Both the position numbers and the translations under genes were made by a program. Of a stretch of DNA of 12,747 nucleotides, positions 529-12,747 are shown piece by piece; the stretch's first letter is position 1, and the number at the start of each line of letters is the position of its first letter. This DNA is from Naegleria gruberi. Its lineage: Eukaryota. The stretch lies in the NCBI GenBank assembly GCA_000004985.1, contig GG739001.1; one strand, written 5' to 3'. Below the pieces are notes generated by a model, which was given only the letters and a program-made list of their open reading frames with translations, had not been told where the DNA came from and did no database searches.

Positions 529-533
529 AAAAA
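529..533 (-). terminator. RNA polymerase III terminator (T5 run) directly after the 5S rRNA 3' end
   Basis: Plus-strand aaaaa at 529-533 equals TTTTT on the minus strand, immediately 3' of ...GCTGTAGTC. Confidence 0.7.
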
Positions 534-651
534 GACTACAGCACCACAGGTTCCCAAGTTGTCTCCAACCTCAGTACTGATGTGGCTCGACGATGCTTAA
601 CTTCTCAAATCGGACGGGATGAGGTGCATTCATCGTGATATGGCCGTAGCC
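534..651 (-). rRNA. 5S ribosomal RNA gene (about 118 nt)
   Basis: The reverse complement of 534-651 reads GGCTACGGCCATATCACGATGAATGCACCTCATCCCGTCCGATTTGAGAAGTTAAGCATCGTCGAGCCACATCAGTACTGAGGTTGGAGACAACTTGGGAACCTGTGGTGCTGTAGTC. This carries the universally conserved 5S blocks: CTACGGCCATA at the 5' end, CATCCCGTCCGAT, the internal-control-region box A GAAGTTAAGC, and TGGGAAC...GGTGCTGTAG at the 3' end. The 5' GGCUACGGC pairs with the 3' GCUGUAGUC over 9 bp including 2 G-U wobbles, forming helix I. It is followed immediately by a T5 run on the minus strand. Confidence 0.9.
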
Positions 652-1086: not shown

Positions 1087-3401
1087 ATGCCACCATTGAT
1101 CAGTTCATCATCTCTAAATGGTGATGAATTGGAAGAACTTGATCTCAATGAAGATTATGCTGGTGGTGAAGTGTTTAAGAATGGGAATGATGATGATTCG
1201 TCCCCAGAGCCATTGCATAAGGGAGCTTCTTGGATATCAATCTTGTTCTTTATGTTTGCTGGCAAGTTGATGAGTATTGGCTTTAGAAGGGCTGGTGAGA
1301 ATTATTTGATGAAAATGATAAAGAACATGTTGAATCGTGTTGGAATCTTTGGTCGATTTGAGATTAGAAAGGAGGAGGGAATGAATCATGGGGATATTCC
1401 CAAGTTGGCCGAAAGTGAAAAGTCGAGCAATCATTGTGAATTATTCGAAAGAGAATATAGAGAATTGTATCGTGAGAGGGGCAATTATCGTGAAGATGGA
1501 GGATTTAGAAAGAATTATGGAGGTTTATTGTTGAGAGTAATTGAGAGAGTTTATAGAAGAAGAGGATTGTATACAGTTCCTTTGTGGAGAGTTGCAGAAA
1601 TGATATGTTTGTACATGTCACCACTCATTCTCTATATTTTACTCGAGTCAATCAAGGTTGATGAGTATGTGAAAAGTGCTATACCAGCAGCCACTCAATA
1701 TTTAATTCCAACATCTTCTTACGGAATATTGAGTAATGACACTGTCATTGCATCCAATTTCACAATGAACAATGAAACAAATTGGTTTCAAGAAAACTTG
1801 CCACTCTCAAATATTTTCTTCCAGTTAACTTTGGTAATTTTATTATTCACTTTCAACTCAATGGCCTCATTGTTTAATCATCAGTACTTTTTTGCAACTT
1901 CTAAAATTTGGATTCCACTCATTGGAGCTCTTCAAGGTTCAATCCTGCAAAAGTTGAATAGAATCAAGAGTGTGGAAAGAAGAAAATTCAAAAGTGGTGA
2001 GTTGAACAATCTATTTGCCATAGACACCAGAAGTGTAGCCATGGATGGTATTGATATTCATGAAGCTTGGTTAATGCCATTGACCTTAATTGTTGGTATT
2101 GTGTTGGTTTTCGTATTTTTTGGATATAGCTCACTTGTTGGTGTTCTTGCAATGATTATATGTGGACCAGTTCTTCCATTTTTGGGTAAATATCAAACTA
2201 GTTTTGCAGGCAAAGCTGCACAATTCAGAGATGAAAGAATCAAACACATGAGTGAAATATTGAATGGTATTAGAATTGTTAAATTTTATGTTTTTGAAGA
2301 TAAGATGAAAGAAAAGGTTAATCAAGCAAGAGAAAAGGAATATTCACTCCTCCGAAAGTATGTTACTGTAATGAGTGGATATTGCTTTACTTCATCCCTG
2401 ATGGCCATTGTTGGAAGTGGAGCTACTTTTGTGACTTTCTACTATGCAGGTGGAGATTTGACTTTACCTAAAATGTTTACTGGACTAGTGTTGTTTGGAA
2501 CCTTTAGATTACCATTGTTGCATTTACCTTGGGCCATTTCAAACTTGGTTTTCGCCTATGTGAGTGCCAAACGTATTGGTAGATTCTTGTTTAGTGAAGA
2601 TACTGTGAAATTACCACATGATCATGAAAATAAGGCAAACTTGTGGGAATATGATGAAGAACAAACTGAATTTTCATCCATTATGGATAATGACACTGCT
2701 ATTGAATGTAAGGATGCTTCCATTGGATGGTCAGAAGAGGAAGCTCCAACCCTCACTGATTTAAATTTGAAAATTGAGAGAGGAAAGCTCTACTGTGTCA
2801 TTGGTAATACTGGTAGTGGAAAATCAACCTTAATTTCCTCCATTTATGGTGAATCTGTTGTAAAGAGCGGAAAAGTTAAAGTTAATCCATTGTGTAATAT
2901 TTCACTCAGTGATGAAACCCCATGGTTGATCAATGCATCTGTAAGGGAAAATATTGTCTTTGATAAGAATTTAACTTTTGACAGGGAAAGATATAATAGA
3001 ATATTGGATGTTTGTCAATTAAGAGATGATCTCAGTCGATTCCCAAATTATGATAAGACTGAAATTGGTTTTTCTGGAATTAATCTTTCAGGAGGTCAAA
3101 AACATAGAATTAGTTTAGCCAGAGCTTGTTACAGTAATTCTGAAATTGTCTTGATGGATTCCACACTCAACTCAATTGATGCCAAATTGTGTAGAAAGAT
3201 TTTCAATGAATGCATTTGTGGATTTTTGAAGGATAGAACTAGAATTCTCGTTACACATTCACTTCAATTATTGGAAATGGCTGATGAAGTCATTGTTTTT
3301 GAGAATGGAAAGTTGATTGCTAAAGGGTCTTTGAAGGAAATTAAGAATTCCTATGACTTTTCCAAACTAATCTCTGAAGAAAAGGAAGAAAGTGAAACAG
3401 A
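1087..3401 (+). CDS. ABC transporter, ABCC/MRP-like (multidrug-resistance-associated-protein family). This is the 5' partial: TMD1 + NBD1, and the 3' part is lost in the N gap
   Basis: The first ATG of the long open frame is at 1087, preceded by an A-rich tract. TMD1-type conserved stretches are present: GELNNLFAIDTRSV... and ERIKHMSEILNGIRIVKFYVFE (compare ABCC GEIVNLMSVD... and NEILNGIKVLKLYAWE). NBD1 carries Walker A GNTGSGKST (around 2803-2829), the ABC signature LSGGQKHRISLARA (3085-3126), Walker B IVLMD followed by Ser rather than Asp/Glu, and the H-loop THSLQ. The ORF-track start at 916 is a TTG alternative-start artefact. The frame continues into the N run with no stop, so the gene is truncated by the gap. 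Confidence 0.85.
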
Positions 3402-6400
3402 NNNNNNNNNNNNNNNNNNNNNNNNNNNNNNNNNNNNNNNNNNNNNNNNNNNNNNNNNNNNNNNNNNNNNNNNNNNNNNNNNNNNNNNNNNNNNNNNNNN
3501 NNNNNNNNNNNNNNNNNNNNNNNNNNNNNNNNNNNNNNNNNNNNNNNNNNNNNNNNNNNNNNNNNNNNNNNNNNNNNNNNNNNNNNNNNNNNNNNNNNNN
3601 NNNNNNNNNNNNNNNNNNNNNNNNNNNNNNNNNNNNNNNNNNNNNNNNNNNNNNNNNNNNNNNNNNNNNNNNNNNNNNNNNNNNNNNNNNNNNNNNNNNN
3701 NNNNNNNNNNNNNNNNNNNNNNNNNNNNNNNNNNNNNNNNNNNNNNNNNNNNNNNNNNNNNNNNNNNNNNNNNNNNNNNNNNNNNNNNNNNNNNNNNNNN
3801 NNNNNNNNNNNNNNNNNNNNNNNNNNNNNNNNNNNNNNNNNNNNNNNNNNNNNNNNNNNNNNNNNNNNNNNNNNNNNNNNNNNNNNNNNNNNNNNNNNNN
3901 NNNNNNNNNNNNNNNNNNNNNNNNNNNNNNNNNNNNNNNNNNNNNNNNNNNNNNNNNNNNNNNNNNNNNNNNNNNNNNNNNNNNNNNNNNNNNNNNNNNN
4001 NNNNNNNNNNNNNNNNNNNNNNNNNNNNNNNNNNNNNNNNNNNNNNNNNNNNNNNNNNNNNNNNNNNNNNNNNNNNNNNNNNNNNNNNNNNNNNNNNNNN
4101 NNNNNNNNNNNNNNNNNNNNNNNNNNNNNNNNNNNNNNNNNNNNNNNNNNNNNNNNNNNNNNNNNNNNNNNNNNNNNNNNNNNNNNNNNNNNNNNNNNNN
4201 NNNNNNNNNNNNNNNNNNNNNNNNNNNNNNNNNNNNNNNNNNNNNNNNNNNNNNNNNNNNNNNNNNNNNNNNNNNNNNNNNNNNNNNNNNNNNNNNNNNN
4301 NNNNNNNNNNNNNNNNNNNNNNNNNNNNNNNNNNNNNNNNNNNNNNNNNNNNNNNNNNNNNNNNNNNNNNNNNNNNNNNNNNNNNNNNNNNNNNNNNNNN
4401 NNNNNNNNNNNNNNNNNNNNNNNNNNNNNNNNNNNNNNNNNNNNNNNNNNNNNNNNNNNNNNNNNNNNNNNNNNNNNNNNNNNNNNNNNNNNNNNNNNNN
4501 NNNNNNNNNNNNNNNNNNNNNNNNNNNNNNNNNNNNNNNNNNNNNNNNNNNNNNNNNNNNNNNNNNNNNNNNNNNNNNNNNNNNNNNNNNNNNNNNNNNN
4601 NNNNNNNNNNNNNNNNNNNNNNNNNNNNNNNNNNNNNNNNNNNNNNNNNNNNNNNNNNNNNNNNNNNNNNNNNNNNNNNNNNNNNNNNNNNNNNNNNNNN
4701 NNNNNNNNNNNNNNNNNNNNNNNNNNNNNNNNNNNNNNNNNNNNNNNNNNNNNNNNNNNNNNNNNNNNNNNNNNNNNNNNNNNNNNNNNNNNNNNNNNNN
4801 NNNNNNNNNNNNNNNNNNNNNNNNNNNNNNNNNNNNNNNNNNNNNNNNNNNNNNNNNNNNNNNNNNNNNNNNNNNNNNNNNNNNNNNNNNNNNNNNNNNN
4901 NNNNNNNNNNNNNNNNNNNNNNNNNNNNNNNNNNNNNNNNNNNNNNNNNNNNNNNNNNNNNNNNNNNNNNNNNNNNNNNNNNNNNNNNNNNNNNNNNNNN
5001 NNNNNNNNNNNNNNNNNNNNNNNNNNNNNNNNNNNNNNNNNNNNNNNNNNNNNNNNNNNNNNNNNNNNNNNNNNNNNNNNNNNNNNNNNNNNNNNNNNNN
5101 NNNNNNNNNNNNNNNNNNNNNNNNNNNNNNNNNNNNNNNNNNNNNNNNNNNNNNNNNNNNNNNNNNNNNNNNNNNNNNNNNNNNNNNNNNNNNNNNNNNN
5201 NNNNNNNNNNNNNNNNNNNNNNNNNNNNNNNNNNNNNNNNNNNNNNNNNNNNNNNNNNNNNNNNNNNNNNNNNNNNNNNNNNNNNNNNNNNNNNNNNNNN
5301 NNNNNNNNNNNNNNNNNNNNNNNNNNNNNNNNNNNNNNNNNNNNNNNNNNNNNNNNNNNNNNNNNNNNNNNNNNNNNNNNNNNNNNNNNNNNNNNNNNNN
5401 NNNNNNNNNNNNNNNNNNNNNNNNNNNNNNNNNNNNNNNNNNNNNNNNNNNNNNNNNNNNNNNNNNNNNNNNNNNNNNNNNNNNNNNNNNNNNNNNNNNN
5501 NNNNNNNNNNNNNNNNNNNNNNNNNNNNNNNNNNNNNNNNNNNNNNNNNNNNNNNNNNNNNNNNNNNNNNNNNNNNNNNNNNNNNNNNNNNNNNNNNNNN
5601 NNNNNNNNNNNNNNNNNNNNNNNNNNNNNNNNNNNNNNNNNNNNNNNNNNNNNNNNNNNNNNNNNNNNNNNNNNNNNNNNNNNNNNNNNNNNNNNNNNNN
5701 NNNNNNNNNNNNNNNNNNNNNNNNNNNNNNNNNNNNNNNNNNNNNNNNNNNNNNNNNNNNNNNNNNNNNNNNNNNNNNNNNNNNNNNNNNNNNNNNNNNN
5801 NNNNNNNNNNNNNNNNNNNNNNNNNNNNNNNNNNNNNNNNNNNNNNNNNNNNNNNNNNNNNNNNNNNNNNNNNNNNNNNNNNNNNNNNNNNNNNNNNNNN
5901 NNNNNNNNNNNNNNNNNNNNNNNNNNNNNNNNNNNNNNNNNNNNNNNNNNNNNNNNNNNNNNNNNNNNNNNNNNNNNNNNNNNNNNNNNNNNNNNNNNNN
6001 NNNNNNNNNNNNNNNNNNNNNNNNNNNNNNNNNNNNNNNNNNNNNNNNNNNNNNNNNNNNNNNNNNNNNNNNNNNNNNNNNNNNNNNNNNNNNNNNNNNN
6101 NNNNNNNNNNNNNNNNNNNNNNNNNNNNNNNNNNNNNNNNNNNNNNNNNNNNNNNNNNNNNNNNNNNNNNNNNNNNNNNNNNNNNNNNNNNNNNNNNNNN
6201 NNNNNNNNNNNNNNNNNNNNNNNNNNNNNNNNNNNNNNNNNNNNNNNNNNNNNNNNNNNNNNNNNNNNNNNNNNNNNNNNNNNNNNNNNNNNNNNNNNNN
6301 NNNNNNNNNNNNNNNNNNNNNNNNNNNNNNNNNNNNNNNNNNNNNNNNNNNNNNNNNNNNNNNNNNNNNNNNNNNNNNNNNNNNNNNNNNNNNNNNNNNN

Positions 6401-7460
6401 NNNNNNNNNNNNNNNNNNNNNNNNNNNNNNNNNNNNNNNNNNNNNNNNNNNNNNNNNNNNNNNNNNNNNNNNNNNNNNNNNNNNNNNNNNNNNNNNNNNN
6501 NNNNNNNNNNNNNNNNNNNNNNNNNNNNNNNNNNNNNNNNNNNNNNNNNNNNNNNNNNNNNNNNNNNNNNNNNNNNNNNNNNNNNNNNNNNNNNNNNNNN
6601 NNNNNNNNNNNNNNNNNNNNNNNNNNNNNNNNNNNNNNNNNNNNNNNNNNNNNNNNNNNNNNNNNNNNNNNNNNNNNNNNNNNNNNNNNNNNNNNNNNNN
6701 NNNNNNNNNNNNNNNNNNNNNNNNNNNNNNNNNNNNNNNNNNNNNNNNNNNNNNNNNNNNNNNNNNNNNNNNNNNNNNNNNNNNNNNNNNNNNNNNNNNN
6801 NNNNNNNNNNNNNNNNNNNNNNNNNNNNNNNNNNNNNNNNNNNNNNNNNNNNNNNNNNNNNNNNNNNNNNNNNNNNNNNNNNNNNNNNNNNNNNNNNNNN
6901 NNNNNNNNNNNNNNNNNNNNNNNNNNNNNNNNNNNNNNNNNNNNNNNNNNNNNNNNNNNNNNNNNNNNNNNNNNNNNNNNNNNNNNNNNNNNNNNNNNNN
7001 NNNNNNNNNNNNNNNNNNNNNNNNNNNNNNNNNNNNNNNNNNNNNNNNNNNNNNNNNNNNNNNNNNNNNNNNNNNNNNNNNNNNNNNNNNNNNNNNNNNN
7101 NNNNNNNNNNNNNNNNNNNNNNNNNNNNNNNNNNNNNNNNNNNNNNNNNNNNNNNNNNNNNNNNNNNNNNNNNNNNNNNNNNNNNNNNNNNNNNNNNNNN
7201 NNNNNNNNNNNNNNNNNNNNNNNNNNNNNNNNNNNNNNNNNNNNNNNNNNNNNNNNNNNNNNNNNNNNNNNNNNNNNNNNNNNNNNNNNNNNNNNNNNNN
7301 NNNNNNNNNNNNNNNNNNNNNNNNNNNNNNNNNNNNNNNNNNNNNNNNNNNNNNNNNNNNNNNNNNNNNNNNNNNNNNNNNNNNNNNNNNNNNNNNNNNN
7401 NNNNNNNNNNNNNNNNNNNNNNNNNNNNNNNNNNNNNNNNNNNNNNNNNNNNNNNNNNNN
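3402..7460. other. Assembly gap (4,059 N). All ORF-track entries crossing it are artefacts
   Basis: The run is uninterrupted n characters. The ORF track translates it as X in four overlapping ORFs on both strands. Confidence 1.
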
Positions 7461-7540
7461 AAAAGAAAACACTGGATTGGGATGAAAGTGGAAAAGTGGA
7501 AGTGAAAGTTTATTATCCAATACCATCTGATTCCAACTGA
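7461..7540 (+). CDS. Possible 3'-terminal coding fragment (…KKTLDWDESGKVEVKVYYPIPSDSN*) of a gene whose body lies in the gap. It is not ABCC-like
   Basis: The frame is open from the gap edge to TGA at 7538-7540. A canonical AATAAA lies immediately after it at 7541-7546. No homology is recognisable, and it could instead be non-coding. Confidence 0.2.
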
Positions 7541-7576
7541 ATAAACCCAGATTAAACCAAAACCATAACTTCTCTC

Positions 7577-7580
7577 AAAA
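7577..7580 (-). terminator. Pol III terminator T-run (TTTT) 4 nt downstream of the tRNA 3' end
   Basis: Plus-strand caaaac at 7576-7581 equals GTTTTG on the minus strand. Confidence 0.55.
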
Positions 7581-7584
7581 CTTC

Positions 7585-7657
7585 TGCTGACGGACGGGAT
7601 CGAACCGGCGACCAATGGCTTATTAGACCAACGCTCTACCGACTGAGCTACGCCAGC
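7585..7657 (-). tRNA. tRNA-Ile (anticodon AAU, read as IAU)
   Basis: The reverse complement is GCTGGCGTAGCTCAGTCGGTAGAGCGTTGGTCTAATAAGCCATTGGTCGCCGGTTCGATCCCGTCCGTCAGCA (73 nt). The 7-bp acceptor stem is GCTGGCG/CGTCAGC with one G-U. The D arm is GCTC-AGTCGGTA-GAGC. The anticodon loop is CTAATAA, giving anticodon AAT. The T arm is GCCGG-TTCGATC-CCGTC with GTTCGATC, and the discriminator is A. There is no encoded CCA, consistent with a eukaryotic gene. One mismatch occurs in each of the anticodon and T stems. A T4 run lies 4 nt downstream. Confidence 0.85.
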
Positions 7658-7659
7658 TT
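7638..7659. repeat. Direct repeat copy 1 (22 bp, accgactgagctacgccagctt). It covers the tRNA-Ile 5' end (positions -2 to about +20)
   Basis: It matches 7787-7808 at 21 of 22 positions. Confidence 0.8.
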
Positions 7660-7684
7660 ATTGATAATAATTGGTTTTAATAAT

Positions 7685-7761
7685 GCTACGTCATTTGCTT
7701 ACATTTTAAATATATTACTCAAAATTGAAATTGTTCTCAATAAAATGTAACATAACGTAGC
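7685..7761. repeat. Imperfect inverted repeat/hairpin inside the ~127-bp segment bracketed by the two tRNA-derived direct repeats. The arms are 7685-7708 and 7741-7761 and the loop is about 32 nt
   Basis: The left arm gctacgtcatttgcttacatttta pairs with the reverse complement of the right arm, ggagctacgttatgttacatttta. The matching blocks are ttacatttta/taaaatgtaa and gctacgt/acgtagc. Confidence 0.6.
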
Positions 7762-7786
7762 TCCTTCAACGTTAAAATTATTAAAT

Positions 7787-7808
7787 ACCAACTGAGCTAC
7801 GCCAGCTT
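7787..7808. repeat. Direct repeat copy 2. This is an orphan 5' fragment of tRNA-Ile (acceptor 5' strand + D stem/loop only) and is not followed by the rest of a tRNA
   Basis: accaactgagctacgccagctt. Its reverse complement, GCTGGCGTAGCTCAGTTGGT, equals tRNA positions 1-20 with one T/C difference. The sequence after it (ATTTAATAATTTTAACG...) is not tRNA-like. Confidence 0.8.
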
Positions 7809-8045
7809 CTAGAAGACCCTTAATGAACTTAGCAAATACCTTACCAATTAACATCATGGTGGACAAGCTAAAAGTACTATTTTTGAACATTTTGGTAAAT
7901 TGTGGTTGGTTCTCTTCTAACAGGAATTCAGAAGATGTCACATCTCTTAAGAACATCATAAAACTTGACAAGAAAAAATAAGCAAACAAAGCAGATCTGC
8001 AAGATTTTGAAAATTAATTTCGGAGGAACTATTCATCAAAAAAAC

Positions 8046-9333
8046 ATGGAGAAAAAACTCTACTCTCTCCAACGAGAAGAAATATTTTCAGATGATATTT
8101 GTTTTGAAATAATTTCCATGATTGATGATTCGTGGTTTATTTTGAATAATTGTTCCTTGATTTCAAAACAATTCTTTAATGTGATCAAGGAACGTTCAAA
8201 ACTTTTTATTGAATTTAAAAAAAAATTTACAGAAAAAAGAATTGAACTATTCACAAAGAGTCAATTTATGAATAGTATTGTTAAAGTTAAATTTTCAACA
8301 AATTTGTTTGTCTCTATTGAAAATCACAAATTCATAAGTGAAATGAAACAATTAACTTCACTTAATATTTCTAACAATCAAATTAATGATGAAACTGCCA
8401 AATCAATAATTGAAATGAAACGATTAACATCACTTGATATTGGTGGAAATCAAATTGGTGATGAAGGAATCAAATCAATAAGTAAAATGAAACAATTAAC
8501 ATTACTTGATATTAGTGGAAATAGCATTGGTGATAAAGGAGTCAAACCAATTAGTGAAATGAAACAATTAACATCACTCAATATTTATAACAACGAAATT
8601 GGTGTAGCAGGATCCAAATTTATAATTGAAATGAAACAATTAACATCACTTGATATAAGCTACAATAGCATTGGTGATGAAGGAGCCAAATCAATAAGTG
8701 AAATGAAACAATTAACATCACTCAATATTAGTGGAACATAGCATTGGTGTAGAAGGAGCCAAATCAATAAGTGAAATGAAACAATTAACATCACTTGATA
8801 TTGGTGAAAATCAAATTGGTGATGAAGGAGCCAAATCAATAAGTGAAATGAAACAATTAACATCACTTACTATTAGTGGAAATAGCATTGGTGATGAAGG
8901 AGTAAAATCAATACGTAAAATGAAACAACTAACATCATTTAATATAAGCTACAATGAAACTGGTGTAGCAGGAGCCAAATTTATAAGTGAAATGAAACAA
9001 TTAACATCACTTGATATAAGCTACAATGAAATTGGTGATGAAGGAGCCAAATCAATAAGTGAATTGAAACAATTAACATCACTTACTATTAGTGGAAATA
9101 GCATTGGTGTAGAAGGAGCCAAATCAATAAGTGAAATGAAACAATTAACATTACTTGATATTGGTGAAAATCAAATTGGTGATGAAGGAGCCAAATCAAT
9201 AAGTGAATTGAAACAATTAAAGTCACTTACTATTAGTGAAAATCAAATTGGTGATGAAGGAGCCAAATTTATAATTGGAATGAAACAATATGGTTCCTTT
9301 AAATTACGATTAGTAAACCTAATATGGATGTAG
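8046..9333 (+). CDS. F-box + RNI-type leucine-rich-repeat protein. The frame is broken by a 1-nt insertion at about 8737, which is either a pseudogene lesion or an assembly/sequencing error
   Basis: The protein starts MEKKLYSLQREEIFSDDICFEIISMIDDSWFILNNCSLISKQFFNVIKERSKL, a pattern like the F-box LPxEIxxxIxSxLxxxxLxxxxxVSKxW. About 13 tandem 24-aa LRRs follow, of the form SEMKQLTSLDISGNSIGDEGAKSI. The frame shifts from ORF 7965..8741 to ORF 8731..9333 at gtggaaCatagc (8731-8742). The paralogous repeat at 9093-9104 reads gtggaaatagc and lacks the C. The ATG at 8046 is the first ATG in frame. Confidence 0.75.
8337..9275 (+). repeat. Tandem array of about 13 near-identical 72-bp units, which are the coding LRR units. 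A higher-order block of about 360 bp (5 units) is duplicated at about 95% nucleotide identity (8641-8910 matches 9001-9270)
   Basis: The unit ...agtgaaatgaaacaattaacatcacttgatat...ggtgatgaaggagccaaatcaata... recurs every 72 nt. The long blocks 8641-8910 and 9001-9270 match almost base for base. Confidence 0.85.
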
Positions 9334-10838: not shown

Positions 10839-11921
10839 ATGGGCAATAATCAAACCACTTCTCACAGATCCCTTCCTACCGAGCATGCATCTTTCTCCAA
10901 TTCTTCTCGCGAATATGCCAATCAATACATAATGATCGCAGGTGGTCCATCAGTAGTAATTTATCAAGGCTTGGTTGATCAAATAATTTCTATCGAAAAT
11001 CGAATAGAAAATGCTGCTAATTATGAGAAGGTAAAGAGTGAATGTTTGAAAGGTATTCATCAACGTTTGGTGAAATATTTCCCTGTTCATTTTCATGATA
11101 CAGTTTCGGAAAAGATAGAAGAACAATTGGTTGACCTGTGGCATAGCCCCAATTTTAAAGAGGAATACTTTGCGAATAGATTCCAGGTAGATCCATACTT
11201 GGTCTTGCCAACTGTATTTAATAATTTGGAGAGAGGAATCAAATTTAATTTGAAAAGAACTTGCTTGTTCCAACCAGCAGGTAGACAATATTATTTCACA
11301 ACATGCTATTCGAAAACAACTGATAATTTTCCACACAGCCGTAATCAAAAGTTGACATTTGAATTATTTGCTAATTGTTTTTCTGCTGATACTTGGGCTG
11401 ATGTAGTTGGAGCATCATTTTCTCTATCTGACTATGATAACAATCAATATTTAGATGAATTTTATCAAGTGTGTAGAAGATTGTCTGGATTTTCTACATA
11501 CAGAATGATTTTAATATTTACTCATCTTGATGTTCTCAATGAAAAGATAAAGTTGGGACTAATTAACTTTGGAGGAGATAAAGATATAGAAATTCGAAAA
11601 GAATTCAACCATATTCCAAAAGAATGTGCTCTCATCATTGAATATCTCATCAAAGAAGCCATCAAAAATATAGAAATGAATCCAAGCCATGACTTTCCCA
11701 ATAGGACATTGGAATACCACATTGTAAATACATCAAGTGACAGTGATATGAAAGAATTATTGGATTGTATTTGTATTGGAGCAAATTCTAAGAGAAAATG
11801 CTTCATATCCTCTAAAATTGAAATGCCACCTTTCTCATATCCTAACACCAGATTCAAGAGCAACATGCACAGAACCTCAGAACTAAATCAGTTTTGTGAT
11901 ATTGCAATATTGCTAAATTGA
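10839..11921 (+). CDS. Divergent heterotrimeric G-protein alpha-subunit-like protein. Its nucleotide-binding motifs are degenerate (candidate pseudo-GTPase), it has an N-myristoylation motif, and it carries a C-terminal extension
   Basis: (1) N-terminus MGNNQTTS fits the N-myristoylation consensus M-G-x-x-x-S/T, as in G-alpha. (2) YIMIAGGPSVVIYQGLVDQI aligns with the G-alpha P-loop region [21 protein letters not shown] but lacks GKS/T. (3) CLFQPAGRQYYF aligns with FDVGGQRSERKKW, so DxxGQ is lost. (4) FSLSDYDNNQYLDEFYQVCRRLSGFSTYRMILIFTHLDVLNEKIK aligns closely with FCVALSEYD…LFDSICNN…SIILFLNKKDLFEEKIK, with NKxD replaced by THLD. (5) YHIVNTSSDSDMKELLDCI aligns with HFTCATDTxNIRFVFxAV, so TCAT is lost. 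(6) About 45 extra residues follow the core. The stop is TGA at 11919-11921. Confidence 0.6.
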   Translation: MGNNQTTSHRSLPTEHASFSNSSREYANQYIMIAGGPSVVIYQGLVDQIISIENRIENAANYEKVKSECLKGIHQRLVKYFPVHFHDTVSEKIEEQLVDLWHSPNFKEEYFANRFQVDPYLVLPTVFNNLERGIKFNLKRTCLFQPAGRQYYFTTCYSKTTDNFPHSRNQKLTFELFANCFSADTWADVVGASFSLSDYDNNQYLDEFYQVCRRLSGFSTYRMILIFTHLDVLNEKIKLGLINFGGDKDIEIRKEFNHIPKECALIIEYLIKEAIKNIEMNPSHDFPNRTLEYHIVNTSSDSDMKELLDCICIGANSKRKCFISSKIEMPPFSYPNTRFKSNMHRTSELNQFCDIAILLN

Positions 11922-11966: not shown

Positions 11967-12747
11967 ATGAGCCAACAAGAAAAGGAGGAAACAGTGGCAC
12001 CAACCAAAGAAGAATCACAGCCAGTTTTTCCCGATGATGTGATATTTGAAATTATTTCCTTCAATAATGATTTTAAATTTACAGTAAGGAGTTGTGCGTT
12101 GGTTTCTTCACAGTGGTTTAATATCATTTCGGAAAGATCAAAACTTTCACTCACACACAACAGTAAAAAGAAAATTAATGGCCAATTTTTACAGCGTATT
12201 GTAGCTGTATTCCATTTCTTGATCAAGTATTTGATCTCAAGAACTTGACTACCCTTGACGTTAATTGTATGAAAATTAAAGATGAAGGAGTAAAGATAAT
12301 AAGTGAAATGAAACAGTTGACCAATCTTAATGTAGGCAGCAGTGGTATTAGTGTTGAGGGAGTCAAATATATCAGCGGCATGAATCAATTAACTAATCTC
12401 AATATAAGCCGCAATAATATACGAGCAGAAGGAGCCCGTTACGTTAGTGAAATGAAACTATTAACCAATCTTAATATTTATTTAAACGGTATTAGAGCAG
12501 AAGGTACCAAATACATCAGTGAAATGAAAGAATTGACTTGTCTTAATATAATGAGTAATGCAATTCACGATAAAGGCGCAGAATACCTTCGTCAAATGCC
12601 TAAATTGAAGACACTCAATATTAATTCAAATAGTATCAGTGTAGAAGGAGCCAAATTTATTAGTGAAATACAGTCATTAACTAATCTTGACATTGGTTTC
12701 AATACTATTGGAGATGACGGTGTCAAATTTATAAGCAAAATGGAAAA
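11967..12747 (+). CDS. F-box + RNI-type LRR protein, a paralogue of the 8046 gene. It is 3'-partial, running off the window, and has an apparent 1-nt frameshift between about 12179 and 12225
   Basis: The N-terminus is MSQQEKEE…VFPDDVIFEIISFNNDFKFTVRSCALVSSQWFNIISERSKLSL, an F-box very similar to that of gene 8046. The track ORF stops at 12248 (…HFLIKYLISRT*). The +2 frame, which is open from 12179, reads …FLDQVFDLKNLTTLDVNCMKIKDEGVKIISEMKQLTNLNVGSSGISVEGVKYISGMNQLTNLNISRNNIRAEGARYVSEMK… (24-aa LRRs) to the end of the window. The likely true reading is …RIVAVFHFLDQVFDLKNLTTLDV…, with an indel in or near the ttt homopolymer at 12215-12217. Confidence 0.7.

Follow-up and report, generated by a model that had tools for sequence, protein, structure and literature searches.

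Genomic context of the tRNA-Ile(AAU) gene

The window analysed here is an entire 12,747-bp scaffold of Naegleria gruberi. A run of 4,059 Ns spans positions 3402-7460, and the tRNA-Ile locus therefore lies in contig-end sequence, with the gene and its repeat 125-350 bp from the edge of the gap. The features with which this report is chiefly concerned are the following.

533-651, minus strand: 5S rRNA gene, complete (Rfam score 105 bits) and divergent in orientation to the ABC-transporter gene
7577-7580, minus strand: T4 run, read from the sequence, 4 nt past the tRNA-Ile 3' end
7585-7657, minus strand: intact tRNA-Ile(AAU) gene (ARAGORN; Rfam RF00005, 59.9 bits)
7637-7659, minus strand: repeat copy A, the intact gene's own 5' end from -2 to +21, AAGCTGGCGTAGCTCAGTCGGTA
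7660-7785, no strand assigned: AT-rich spacer ('insert') of 126 bp, ~24% GC, palindromic, with no tRNA similarity
7786-7808, minus strand: repeat copy B, an orphan tRNA-Ile 5' fragment, AAGCTGGCGTAGCTCAGTTGGTA, 22/23 identical to copy A

The intact tRNA-Ile(AAU) gene claimed in an earlier note on this DNA was recovered by both search programs. It is also genuine, since the same 73 nt are found without any difference on an environmental Naegleria-like contig of 1.5 kb (L001), the sole match obtained when metagenomes were scanned with a tRNA 30-mer. This contig offers 46 bp upstream of its tRNA-Ile gene, which is followed, 87 bp away and on the same strand, by a tRNA-Gly(GCC) gene. Patterns for the tRNA and the 5S rRNA gave no matches in scans of prokaryote and viral contig collections. 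The T4 run at 7577-7580 is presumably the Pol III terminator of the tRNA-Ile gene. The N. gruberi genome is reported to hold 924 tDNAs (PMC2888827), and a published list gives it 279 putative 5S genes, dispersed across the majority of its scaffolds (PMC3369914, Table S1); the row 'scaffold_166, 532-648' of the latter list fits the 5S gene at 533-651. A 10-mer, ATCCCGTCCG, is common to the T arm of the tRNA-Ile (7596-7605, minus strand) and the 5S rRNA (611-620, minus strand), which is probably a coincidence.

Neighbouring genes and the assembly gap

The ABC-transporter gene to the left of the tRNA locus has close relatives on two other Naegleria-like contigs, L002 and L003. On L003, the ABC protein is 83% identical and the divergent 5S gene upstream of it is kept (723-841), with 94% DNA identity to its counterpart in the window over the gene, lost beyond -8; the contig ends just past the ABC gene, before the tRNA site. 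On L002, the ABC protein is 76% identical, and its gene is followed by a minus-strand AMP-binding enzyme gene and then by an unrelated gene. No tRNA was found at the corresponding position of L002, which is nevertheless not a clean empty site, because its right-hand neighbour gene differs. No closer relatives turned up in a protein search with the AMP-binding gene.

The C-terminal ~620 residues that the ABC protein lacks here, equivalent to 1.86 kb, are provided by a second N. gruberi assembly (protein P0007, on a 502-kb contig). Its ABC protein differs at 2 residues from that of the window, which points to another haplotype or strain. Together with an L002-like spacer of 125 bp and a 2.14-kb AMP-binding gene, this comes to ~4.13 kb, as compared to the 4,059-N gap. 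Judging from these sizes, and by analogy with L002, L003 and the second assembly, the missing 1.86 kb at the 3' end of the ABC gene probably fall within the gap at 3402-7460, along with a minus-strand AMP-binding gene of ~2.1 kb, whose start would be the ATG at 7526. As the summed sizes match the gap and end at this minus-strand ATG, the tRNA-Ile gene would probably lie ~59 bp upstream of the AMP-binding gene.

Several further observations concern the surrounding genes. The public gene model P0004 (968 aa) joins 1087-3399 to 8731-9333, that is, the N-terminal half of the ABC protein to leucine-rich repeats beyond the gap, and is a chimera caused by the gap. The leucine-rich repeats belong to a 72-bp tandem array at 8327-9289 (13.4 copies, 81% matches), which encodes the 24-residue LRR_6 repeats of an F-box/LRR protein; the frame is broken at ~8731-8741, leaving two adjacent ORFs. 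A second gene of the F-box/LRR type begins at 11967 with an F-box-like region, continues with sequence resembling the first gene, and runs off the end of the scaffold. The product of the ORF at 10839-11921 has 100% identity to a predicted protein of N. gruberi. On L002 (a Naegleria-like Logan contig, SRR25266747), a Glyco_hydro_108 gene at 4005-4706 lies directly upstream of the ABC gene, in the place occupied by the 5S gene in N. gruberi and L003. Glyco_hydro_108 is a lysozyme-type family found mainly in bacteria and phages, and its presence on L002 could reflect lateral transfer or a chimeric contig.

A partial second copy of the tRNA-Ile 5' end

The earlier note described a 22-bp direct repeat at 7638-7659 and 7787-7808. 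These positions are the sole two matches in the window to the motif AAGCTGGCGTAGCTCAGT[C/T]GGT with up to three mismatches allowed, a count reached by none of 200 dinucleotide shuffles of the window (mean 0.00, without a single match in any), and the motif AAGCTGGCGTAGCTCAGTYGGT occurs in the window exactly twice. The repeat is not due to chance. It proved to be one base longer than first noted, measuring 23 nt (7637-7659 and 7786-7808) with 22 of the 23 positions identical. Read on the minus strand, it consists of AA followed by tRNA positions 1-21 (gene positions -2 to +21), the A box included, and the single mismatch between copies A and B is a C/T difference at tRNA position 17, in the D-loop.

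Copy B sits 149 bp upstream of the intact gene's own copy of its 5' end. It contains the A box and lacks a B box, and TTT and TTTT runs come after it; neither a B box nor a tRNA 3' half was found nearby. The similarity of the two copies ends sharply on both sides, starting at -2 and ending at +21, and in the flanks from -3 to -10 only ~4 of 8 positions match. The AA at -2/-1 also precedes the identical tRNA-Ile at the unrelated L001 locus, and copy B and L001 both read GAA at -3 to -1. The structure, an intact tRNA gene accompanied by an orphaned piece of its 5' end, is real, and is probably an ordinary scar left by a single insertion or rearrangement.

Downstream of the tRNA-Ile gene, by 45-73 nt, D-arm-like motifs (TTCAGTTGGAATCAGATGGTATTGGATAAT) are present at 7512-7540 on the minus strand. 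The stretch TCAGATGGTATTGGATAAT there matches the junction between copy B and the spacer, TCAGTTGGTATTTAATAAT, at 16 of 19 positions (BLAST E = 0.6); this likeness may be due to chance.

The spacer is an AT-rich palindrome

The view that the DNA between the repeats is not tRNA was upheld: when tRNA positions 23-73 were compared with the 126-bp spacer, the best local alignment scored 12, against a shuffle mean of 12.25. The spacer folds as an imperfect hairpin (DNA fold -13.5 kcal/mol, z = -2.5), with 2 of 200 shuffles folding equally well. The inverted repeat already noticed at 7685-7708 and 7741-7761 proved real, if modest (79% over 24 nt). The elements of the fold are listed below.

7685-7708, no strand assigned: left hairpin arm, GCTACGT ... 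TTACATTTTA, from inverted-repeat search and fold
7741-7761, no strand assigned: right hairpin arm, TAAAATGTAA ... ACGTAGC, from inverted-repeat search and fold
7685-7691 and 7755-7761: paired block GCTACGT / ACGTAGC, centre 7723
7699-7708 and 7741-7750: paired block TTACATTTTA / TAAAATGTAA, centre 7724.5
7665-7672 and 7776-7783: weak outer paired block TAATAATT / AATTATTA, centre 7724

The centres of these pairs (7723-7724.5) are close to that of the spacer (7722.5), and the palindrome is therefore symmetric between the two repeat copies. By our own estimate, a 77-nt hairpin placed randomly in a 127-nt spacer would be so centred in about 3 of 51 cases, or ~6%. A competing and longer outer pairing, of TTGGTTTTAATAAT (7671-7684) with ATTATTAAATACCAA (7777-7791), is off-centre (7731) and extends 5 nt into copy B. 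The terminal inverted similarity that had been proposed, pairing ATT(GA)TAATAATT at 7660-7672 with AATTATTA(A)AT at 7776-7786, has ~11 matching bases and a 2-nt indel in DNA of ~24% GC; it is weak and not clearly distinct from the AT-rich background. The stronger inverted pairs are sub-terminal, 25 nt inside each end of the spacer. Furthermore, tRNA positions 6-13 recur in inverted form within the right arm ACGTAGCTC (7755-7763), as CGTAGCTC (7756-7763).

Neither the 8.7 kb of unmasked window nor the three Naegleria-like contigs L001-L003 yielded a second copy of the spacer, and an exact spacer 24-mer had no match in the JGI metagenomes; in so tiny a search space, these negative results carry hardly any weight. 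Rfam searches of 7461-8100 placed the tRNA alone above threshold, all other hits having E values of at least 0.5 and scores far below gathering. The spacer holds no ORF, no poly(A) tail and no A or B box, and its ends are of the ATTATTA type, without an A-run.

Two candidates in the surrounding sequence were considered and rejected. An ORF at 7702-7989 (minus strand, 96 aa), which reads through copy B, was not accepted as a gene or coding exon: it has no Pfam match, its one marginal match among 1.8 billion representative proteins (E = 3e-4) is a repetitive 1,984-aa protein that also lacks a Pfam match, and about one ORF as long as 96 codons is expected by chance in the window. At 7879-7964 (minus strand), a weak C/D-box match of the snR61/Z1/Z11 kind was seen (18.5 bits against a gathering score of 45, E = 2.7), comprising AUGAUGU as C box and an internal CUGA as D' box; being far below threshold and having no terminal D box, it was dismissed as a snoRNA or a tRNA-snoRNA dicistron.

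Likeness of the spacer to the 5S upstream flank

Elsewhere in the window, the spacer is best matched by a stretch of 45 nt immediately 5' of the 5S gene (-50 to -5). The segments concerned, in their aligned form, are as follows.

7692-7734, plus strand, antisense to the tRNA: spacer segment resembling the TATA-containing 5S 5' flank, CATTT-GCTT-ACATTTTAAATATATTACTCA-AAATTGAAATTGT
656-699, minus sense: 5S flank, CATTTAGTTTAACATTTTGAATATATT--TCAGAATTTGAGATTGT

The module may be written as ACATTTTRAATATATT...ATTGT, with AATATATT at -29 relative to the 5S start. Aligned, the two segments match at 37 positions and score 40, against 28.6 ± 3.2 in dinucleotide shuffles, 1 of 300 of which reached it. 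In an all-against-all comparison of 183 window segments, this was the top non-paralogous pair, the next pairs scoring 36-37. Published work describes a TATA box ahead of the 5S genes of N. gruberi (PMC3369914). The likeness is suggestive only: it may represent chance in AT-rich DNA, a shared promoter style, or related sequence beside two Pol III genes.

It could be argued from this match that the spacer is not foreign DNA but a functional Pol III flank with a TATA promoter module, serving either the tRNA or a divergent plus-strand transcript that would start near 7739 and run antisense through copy B to a T5 run at ~7880. Divergent upstream tRNA genes indeed act as promoters of small-RNA genes in the trypanosomatids, which also belong to the Discoba, and the published TATA box, the top rank of the pair among the 183 segments and the presence of AATATATT in the matching 5S flank all agree with such a role. 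We nevertheless consider it unlikely. The score of 40 barely exceeds that of the best background pairs, the module is antisense to the tRNA, and its TATA, at approximately -50 to -60, is too distant from the tRNA start. The candidate plus-strand RNA (7739-7884) is not significantly structured (z = -0.67) and matches no Rfam family at E values up to 10, while the orthologous 5S flank of L003 is not conserved beyond -8. Finally, a promoter function would leave the 23-nt repeat unexplained.

Origin of the structure

The explanation that we tentatively prefer, while granting it somewhat less than an even chance, is one insertion of ~126 bp into the tRNA-Ile 5' edge with duplication of 23 bp of target. 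In such a single past event, AT-rich palindromic DNA would have entered the 5' edge of the tRNA-Ile(AAU) gene, and target positions -2 to +21 would have been duplicated upon insertion, perhaps through staggered nicks ~23 nt apart that were then filled in. The DNA inserted would be more than filler: either a small non-autonomous element or a stub from the 3' end of a retroelement. Copy A, still joined to the remainder of the gene, would restore a complete tRNA gene that is probably still expressed, and copy B, 149 bp upstream, would be an inert relic. Assembly of TFIIIC on copy B would not be expected, because the A box is kept but there is no B box, and the T-runs right behind it would halt any Pol III that started there. 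The empty site that preceded the insertion would consist of the tRNA-Ile gene joined directly to the flank ...GGGTCTTCTAG, without the spacer.

What can be read directly from the DNA is a repeat that breaks off sharply at position 21/22 and a hairpin that is centred on the spacer, and it is from these that we infer the insertion. An insertion accounts for the sharp edges of the repeat, for the unrelated upstream flanks and for the palindrome centred between the copies; a centred hairpin is what would be expected of an element with sub-terminal inverted repeats. The weak inverted similarity of the spacer ends, the fold z-score of -2.5 and the record of tRNA genes as insertion targets in other organisms also count in its favour. 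Since the upstream flanks of the two copies are unrelated except for the AA at -2/-1, there is no support for a tandem duplication that took in the flank as well as the gene. The insertion model has several weaknesses. A 23-bp duplication is too long for a MITE-like body. Such a length would be in keeping with target-primed reverse transcription, yet the inserted DNA lacks a poly(A) tail, A and B boxes and any trace of an ORF. The model is thus at odds with itself, as the palindromic body is unlike a LINE or SINE and the duplication is unlike that of DDE elements. Moreover, the left edge of the repeat coincides with the gene 5' end, where by our estimate an untargeted insertion would land about 1 time in 10-15, the longest outer-arm pairing is off-centre and extends into copy B, and no second spacer copy was found in the window, in L001-L003 or, as an exact 24-mer, in the JGI metagenomes.

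A reading absent from the earlier note, to which we assign an only slightly lower probability than to insertion, is that copy B is what remains of another tRNA-Ile gene, originally complete and arranged in tandem upstream, from which positions 22-73 and part of the spacer were lost by deletion or rearrangement. Such a truncated gene explains the repeat about equally well, since the repeat starts at the gene 5' edge and the AA recurs at L001. Indeed, the similarity would be expected to begin at this boundary (-2), because independent gene copies share the gene and not the flanks, and the recurrence of AA at -2/-1 before the identical tRNA-Ile of the unrelated L001 locus, with GAA at -3 to -1 in both copy B and L001, is in keeping with this. 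Tight same-strand clusters of Naegleria-like tRNA genes do occur, as illustrated by the tRNA-Ile/tRNA-Gly pair of L001 (87 bp), and position 17 of the D-loop, where copies A and B differ, is a common isodecoder-variable site. With 924 tDNAs in the genome (PMC2888827), the birth and death of such genes is expected to be frequent. Truncation, on the other hand, needs a deletion with a clean end at position 21/22, leaves the centring of the hairpin between the copies to coincidence (the ~6% estimated above), and should be set against the lack of any 3' half or B box trace nearby. The origin is accordingly to be weighed between two mundane mechanisms, insertion and truncation, the first being only slightly the more probable.

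In-situ decay of a whole second tRNA gene was rejected: the spacer contains no residual tRNA, scoring at the level of the shuffles (12 against 12.25), and neither a 3' half nor a B box lies nearby. Simple replication slippage, put forward in the earlier note as the alternative to insertion, fails on geometry, because slippage yields adjacent duplicated units, whereas here 23 nt rather than a 149-bp unit are duplicated, around a unique 126-bp spacer. An assembly or cloning artefact seems highly improbable. The locus does lie close to the edge of the 4,059-N gap (125-350 bp) in a small Sanger-era scaffold whose public gene model, P0004, already joins unrelated genes across the gap, and E. coli clones do not maintain palindromes stably; a misjoin, however, cannot yield 126 bp of unique sequence between two 23-nt copies that differ from each other by one base, and the tRNA-Ile itself is perfect.

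Comparison with known mobile elements

We found no literature on tRNA-associated mobile elements or MITEs in Naegleria. Bacterial integrase-type integration (attL/attR, with CIME-like remnants) restores an intact tRNA gene at one end of the inserted DNA and leaves ~20 nt of it as a partial copy at the other, which resembles the present arrangement of an intact tRNA on one side of the spacer and a ~20-nt partial copy on the other. Those systems are, however, prokaryotic and usually involve the 3' half of the gene, whereas here the host is a eukaryote, the 5' end is concerned, no recombinase gene is present and only 126 bp separate the repeats. The integrase-type model was rejected on at least one defining feature.

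Genes for tRNAs are documented as insertion targets in yeasts, dictyostelids and Perkinsus. The Dictyostelium elements TRE5-A, TRE3 and DGLT-A and the yeast elements Ty1 and Ty3 insert at or near the 5' side of Pol III genes in compact genomes, leaving the tRNA intact and creating a flanking duplication, all of which is reminiscent of the N. gruberi locus. TRE5-A (~50 bp upstream), Ty3 (at the transcription start) and Ty1 (upstream) insert outside the gene, whereas 21 nt of the gene are duplicated here; TRE and Ty elements also carry LTRs or poly(A)/ORF remnants, in contrast to a 126-bp palindrome with no retroelement feature. The Ty3 and TRE models were both set aside, each being at odds with the spacer in at least one defining feature.

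Target duplications of non-LTR retrotransposons and SINEs, made by target-primed reverse transcription, are variable in length, at ~5-30 bp. The 23-nt repeat falls within this range, but the spacer has neither a poly(A) or simple-repeat tail nor A and B boxes. With MITEs and foldback elements the spacer shares its small size (~126 bp), its AT-richness, its largely palindromic nature and a direct repeat on both sides. Its terminal inverted repeats barely exceed the AT-rich background, and a MITE family is by definition multi-copy. Even in hAT, Kolobok, P and MuDR, DDE superfamilies related to Dada and referred to as long-TSD, duplications are 4-10 bp (PMC3706591), as opposed to 23 nt here. The proposal of an insertion with a long target duplication is partly supported: its geometry is confirmed and the centred hairpin adds a point in its favour, but the duplication length lies outside the ranges of both TIR transposons (4-10 bp) and Dada (6-7 bp).

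Dada elements are the only DNA transposons known to target tRNA genes, and that of Perkinsus marinus targets tRNA-Ile within the A-box sequence TAGCTC (PMC3706591). They have no terminal inverted repeats but sub-terminal ones, whose sequence also occurs in the target gene (PMC3706591); similarly, the sub-terminal arm ACGTAGC(TC) of the spacer is found in the tRNA as CGTAGCTC, at positions 6-13. Dada insertions, however, carry 6-7 bp duplications and split the target gene (PMC3706591), whereas here the duplication is 23 nt and the gene is whole. An assignment of the spacer to Dada was rejected, both because the repeat spans -2 to +21 of an intact gene rather than 6-7 bp at a fixed gene-splitting site and because there is no DDE transposase, larger element or spacer ORF. 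Lastly, as in a tDNA relic, the similarity of the copies is limited to gene positions while the flanks are unrelated, and a short tRNA 5' piece is found near a complete gene, in a genome for which 924 tDNAs are reported (PMC2888827). Such relics usually show graded decay or arbitrary spacing, in contrast to the sharp break and the palindrome centred between the copies seen here.

Implications

As it stands, this locus is one more rearrangement scar at a tRNA gene, and does little more than confirm that the tRNA loci of the tDNA-rich N. gruberi are structurally dynamic. It would matter further only if the spacer recurred as an element and left a like footprint at other genes transcribed by Pol III. 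One may imagine a putative miniature palindromic Naegleria element that homes to the 5' edge of Pol III genes (tRNA-Ile, with a related partial copy at the 5S gene, 656-699), makes duplications of ~23 bp and keeps its target intact; we regard such an element as very unlikely. Mobile elements that target tRNA genes have hitherto been characterised in yeasts, in dictyostelids and, for Dada, in animals and Perkinsus. If it were real, the element would be the first in Heterolobosea to target Pol III genes, with a duplication length unlike that of any described DNA transposon. It would also constitute an independent case from the Discoba, its 23-bp duplication pointing to convergent 'safe-haven' targeting and possibly to a new transposition chemistry, and it could partly explain the 924 tDNAs and 279 dispersed 5S genes of N. 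gruberi.
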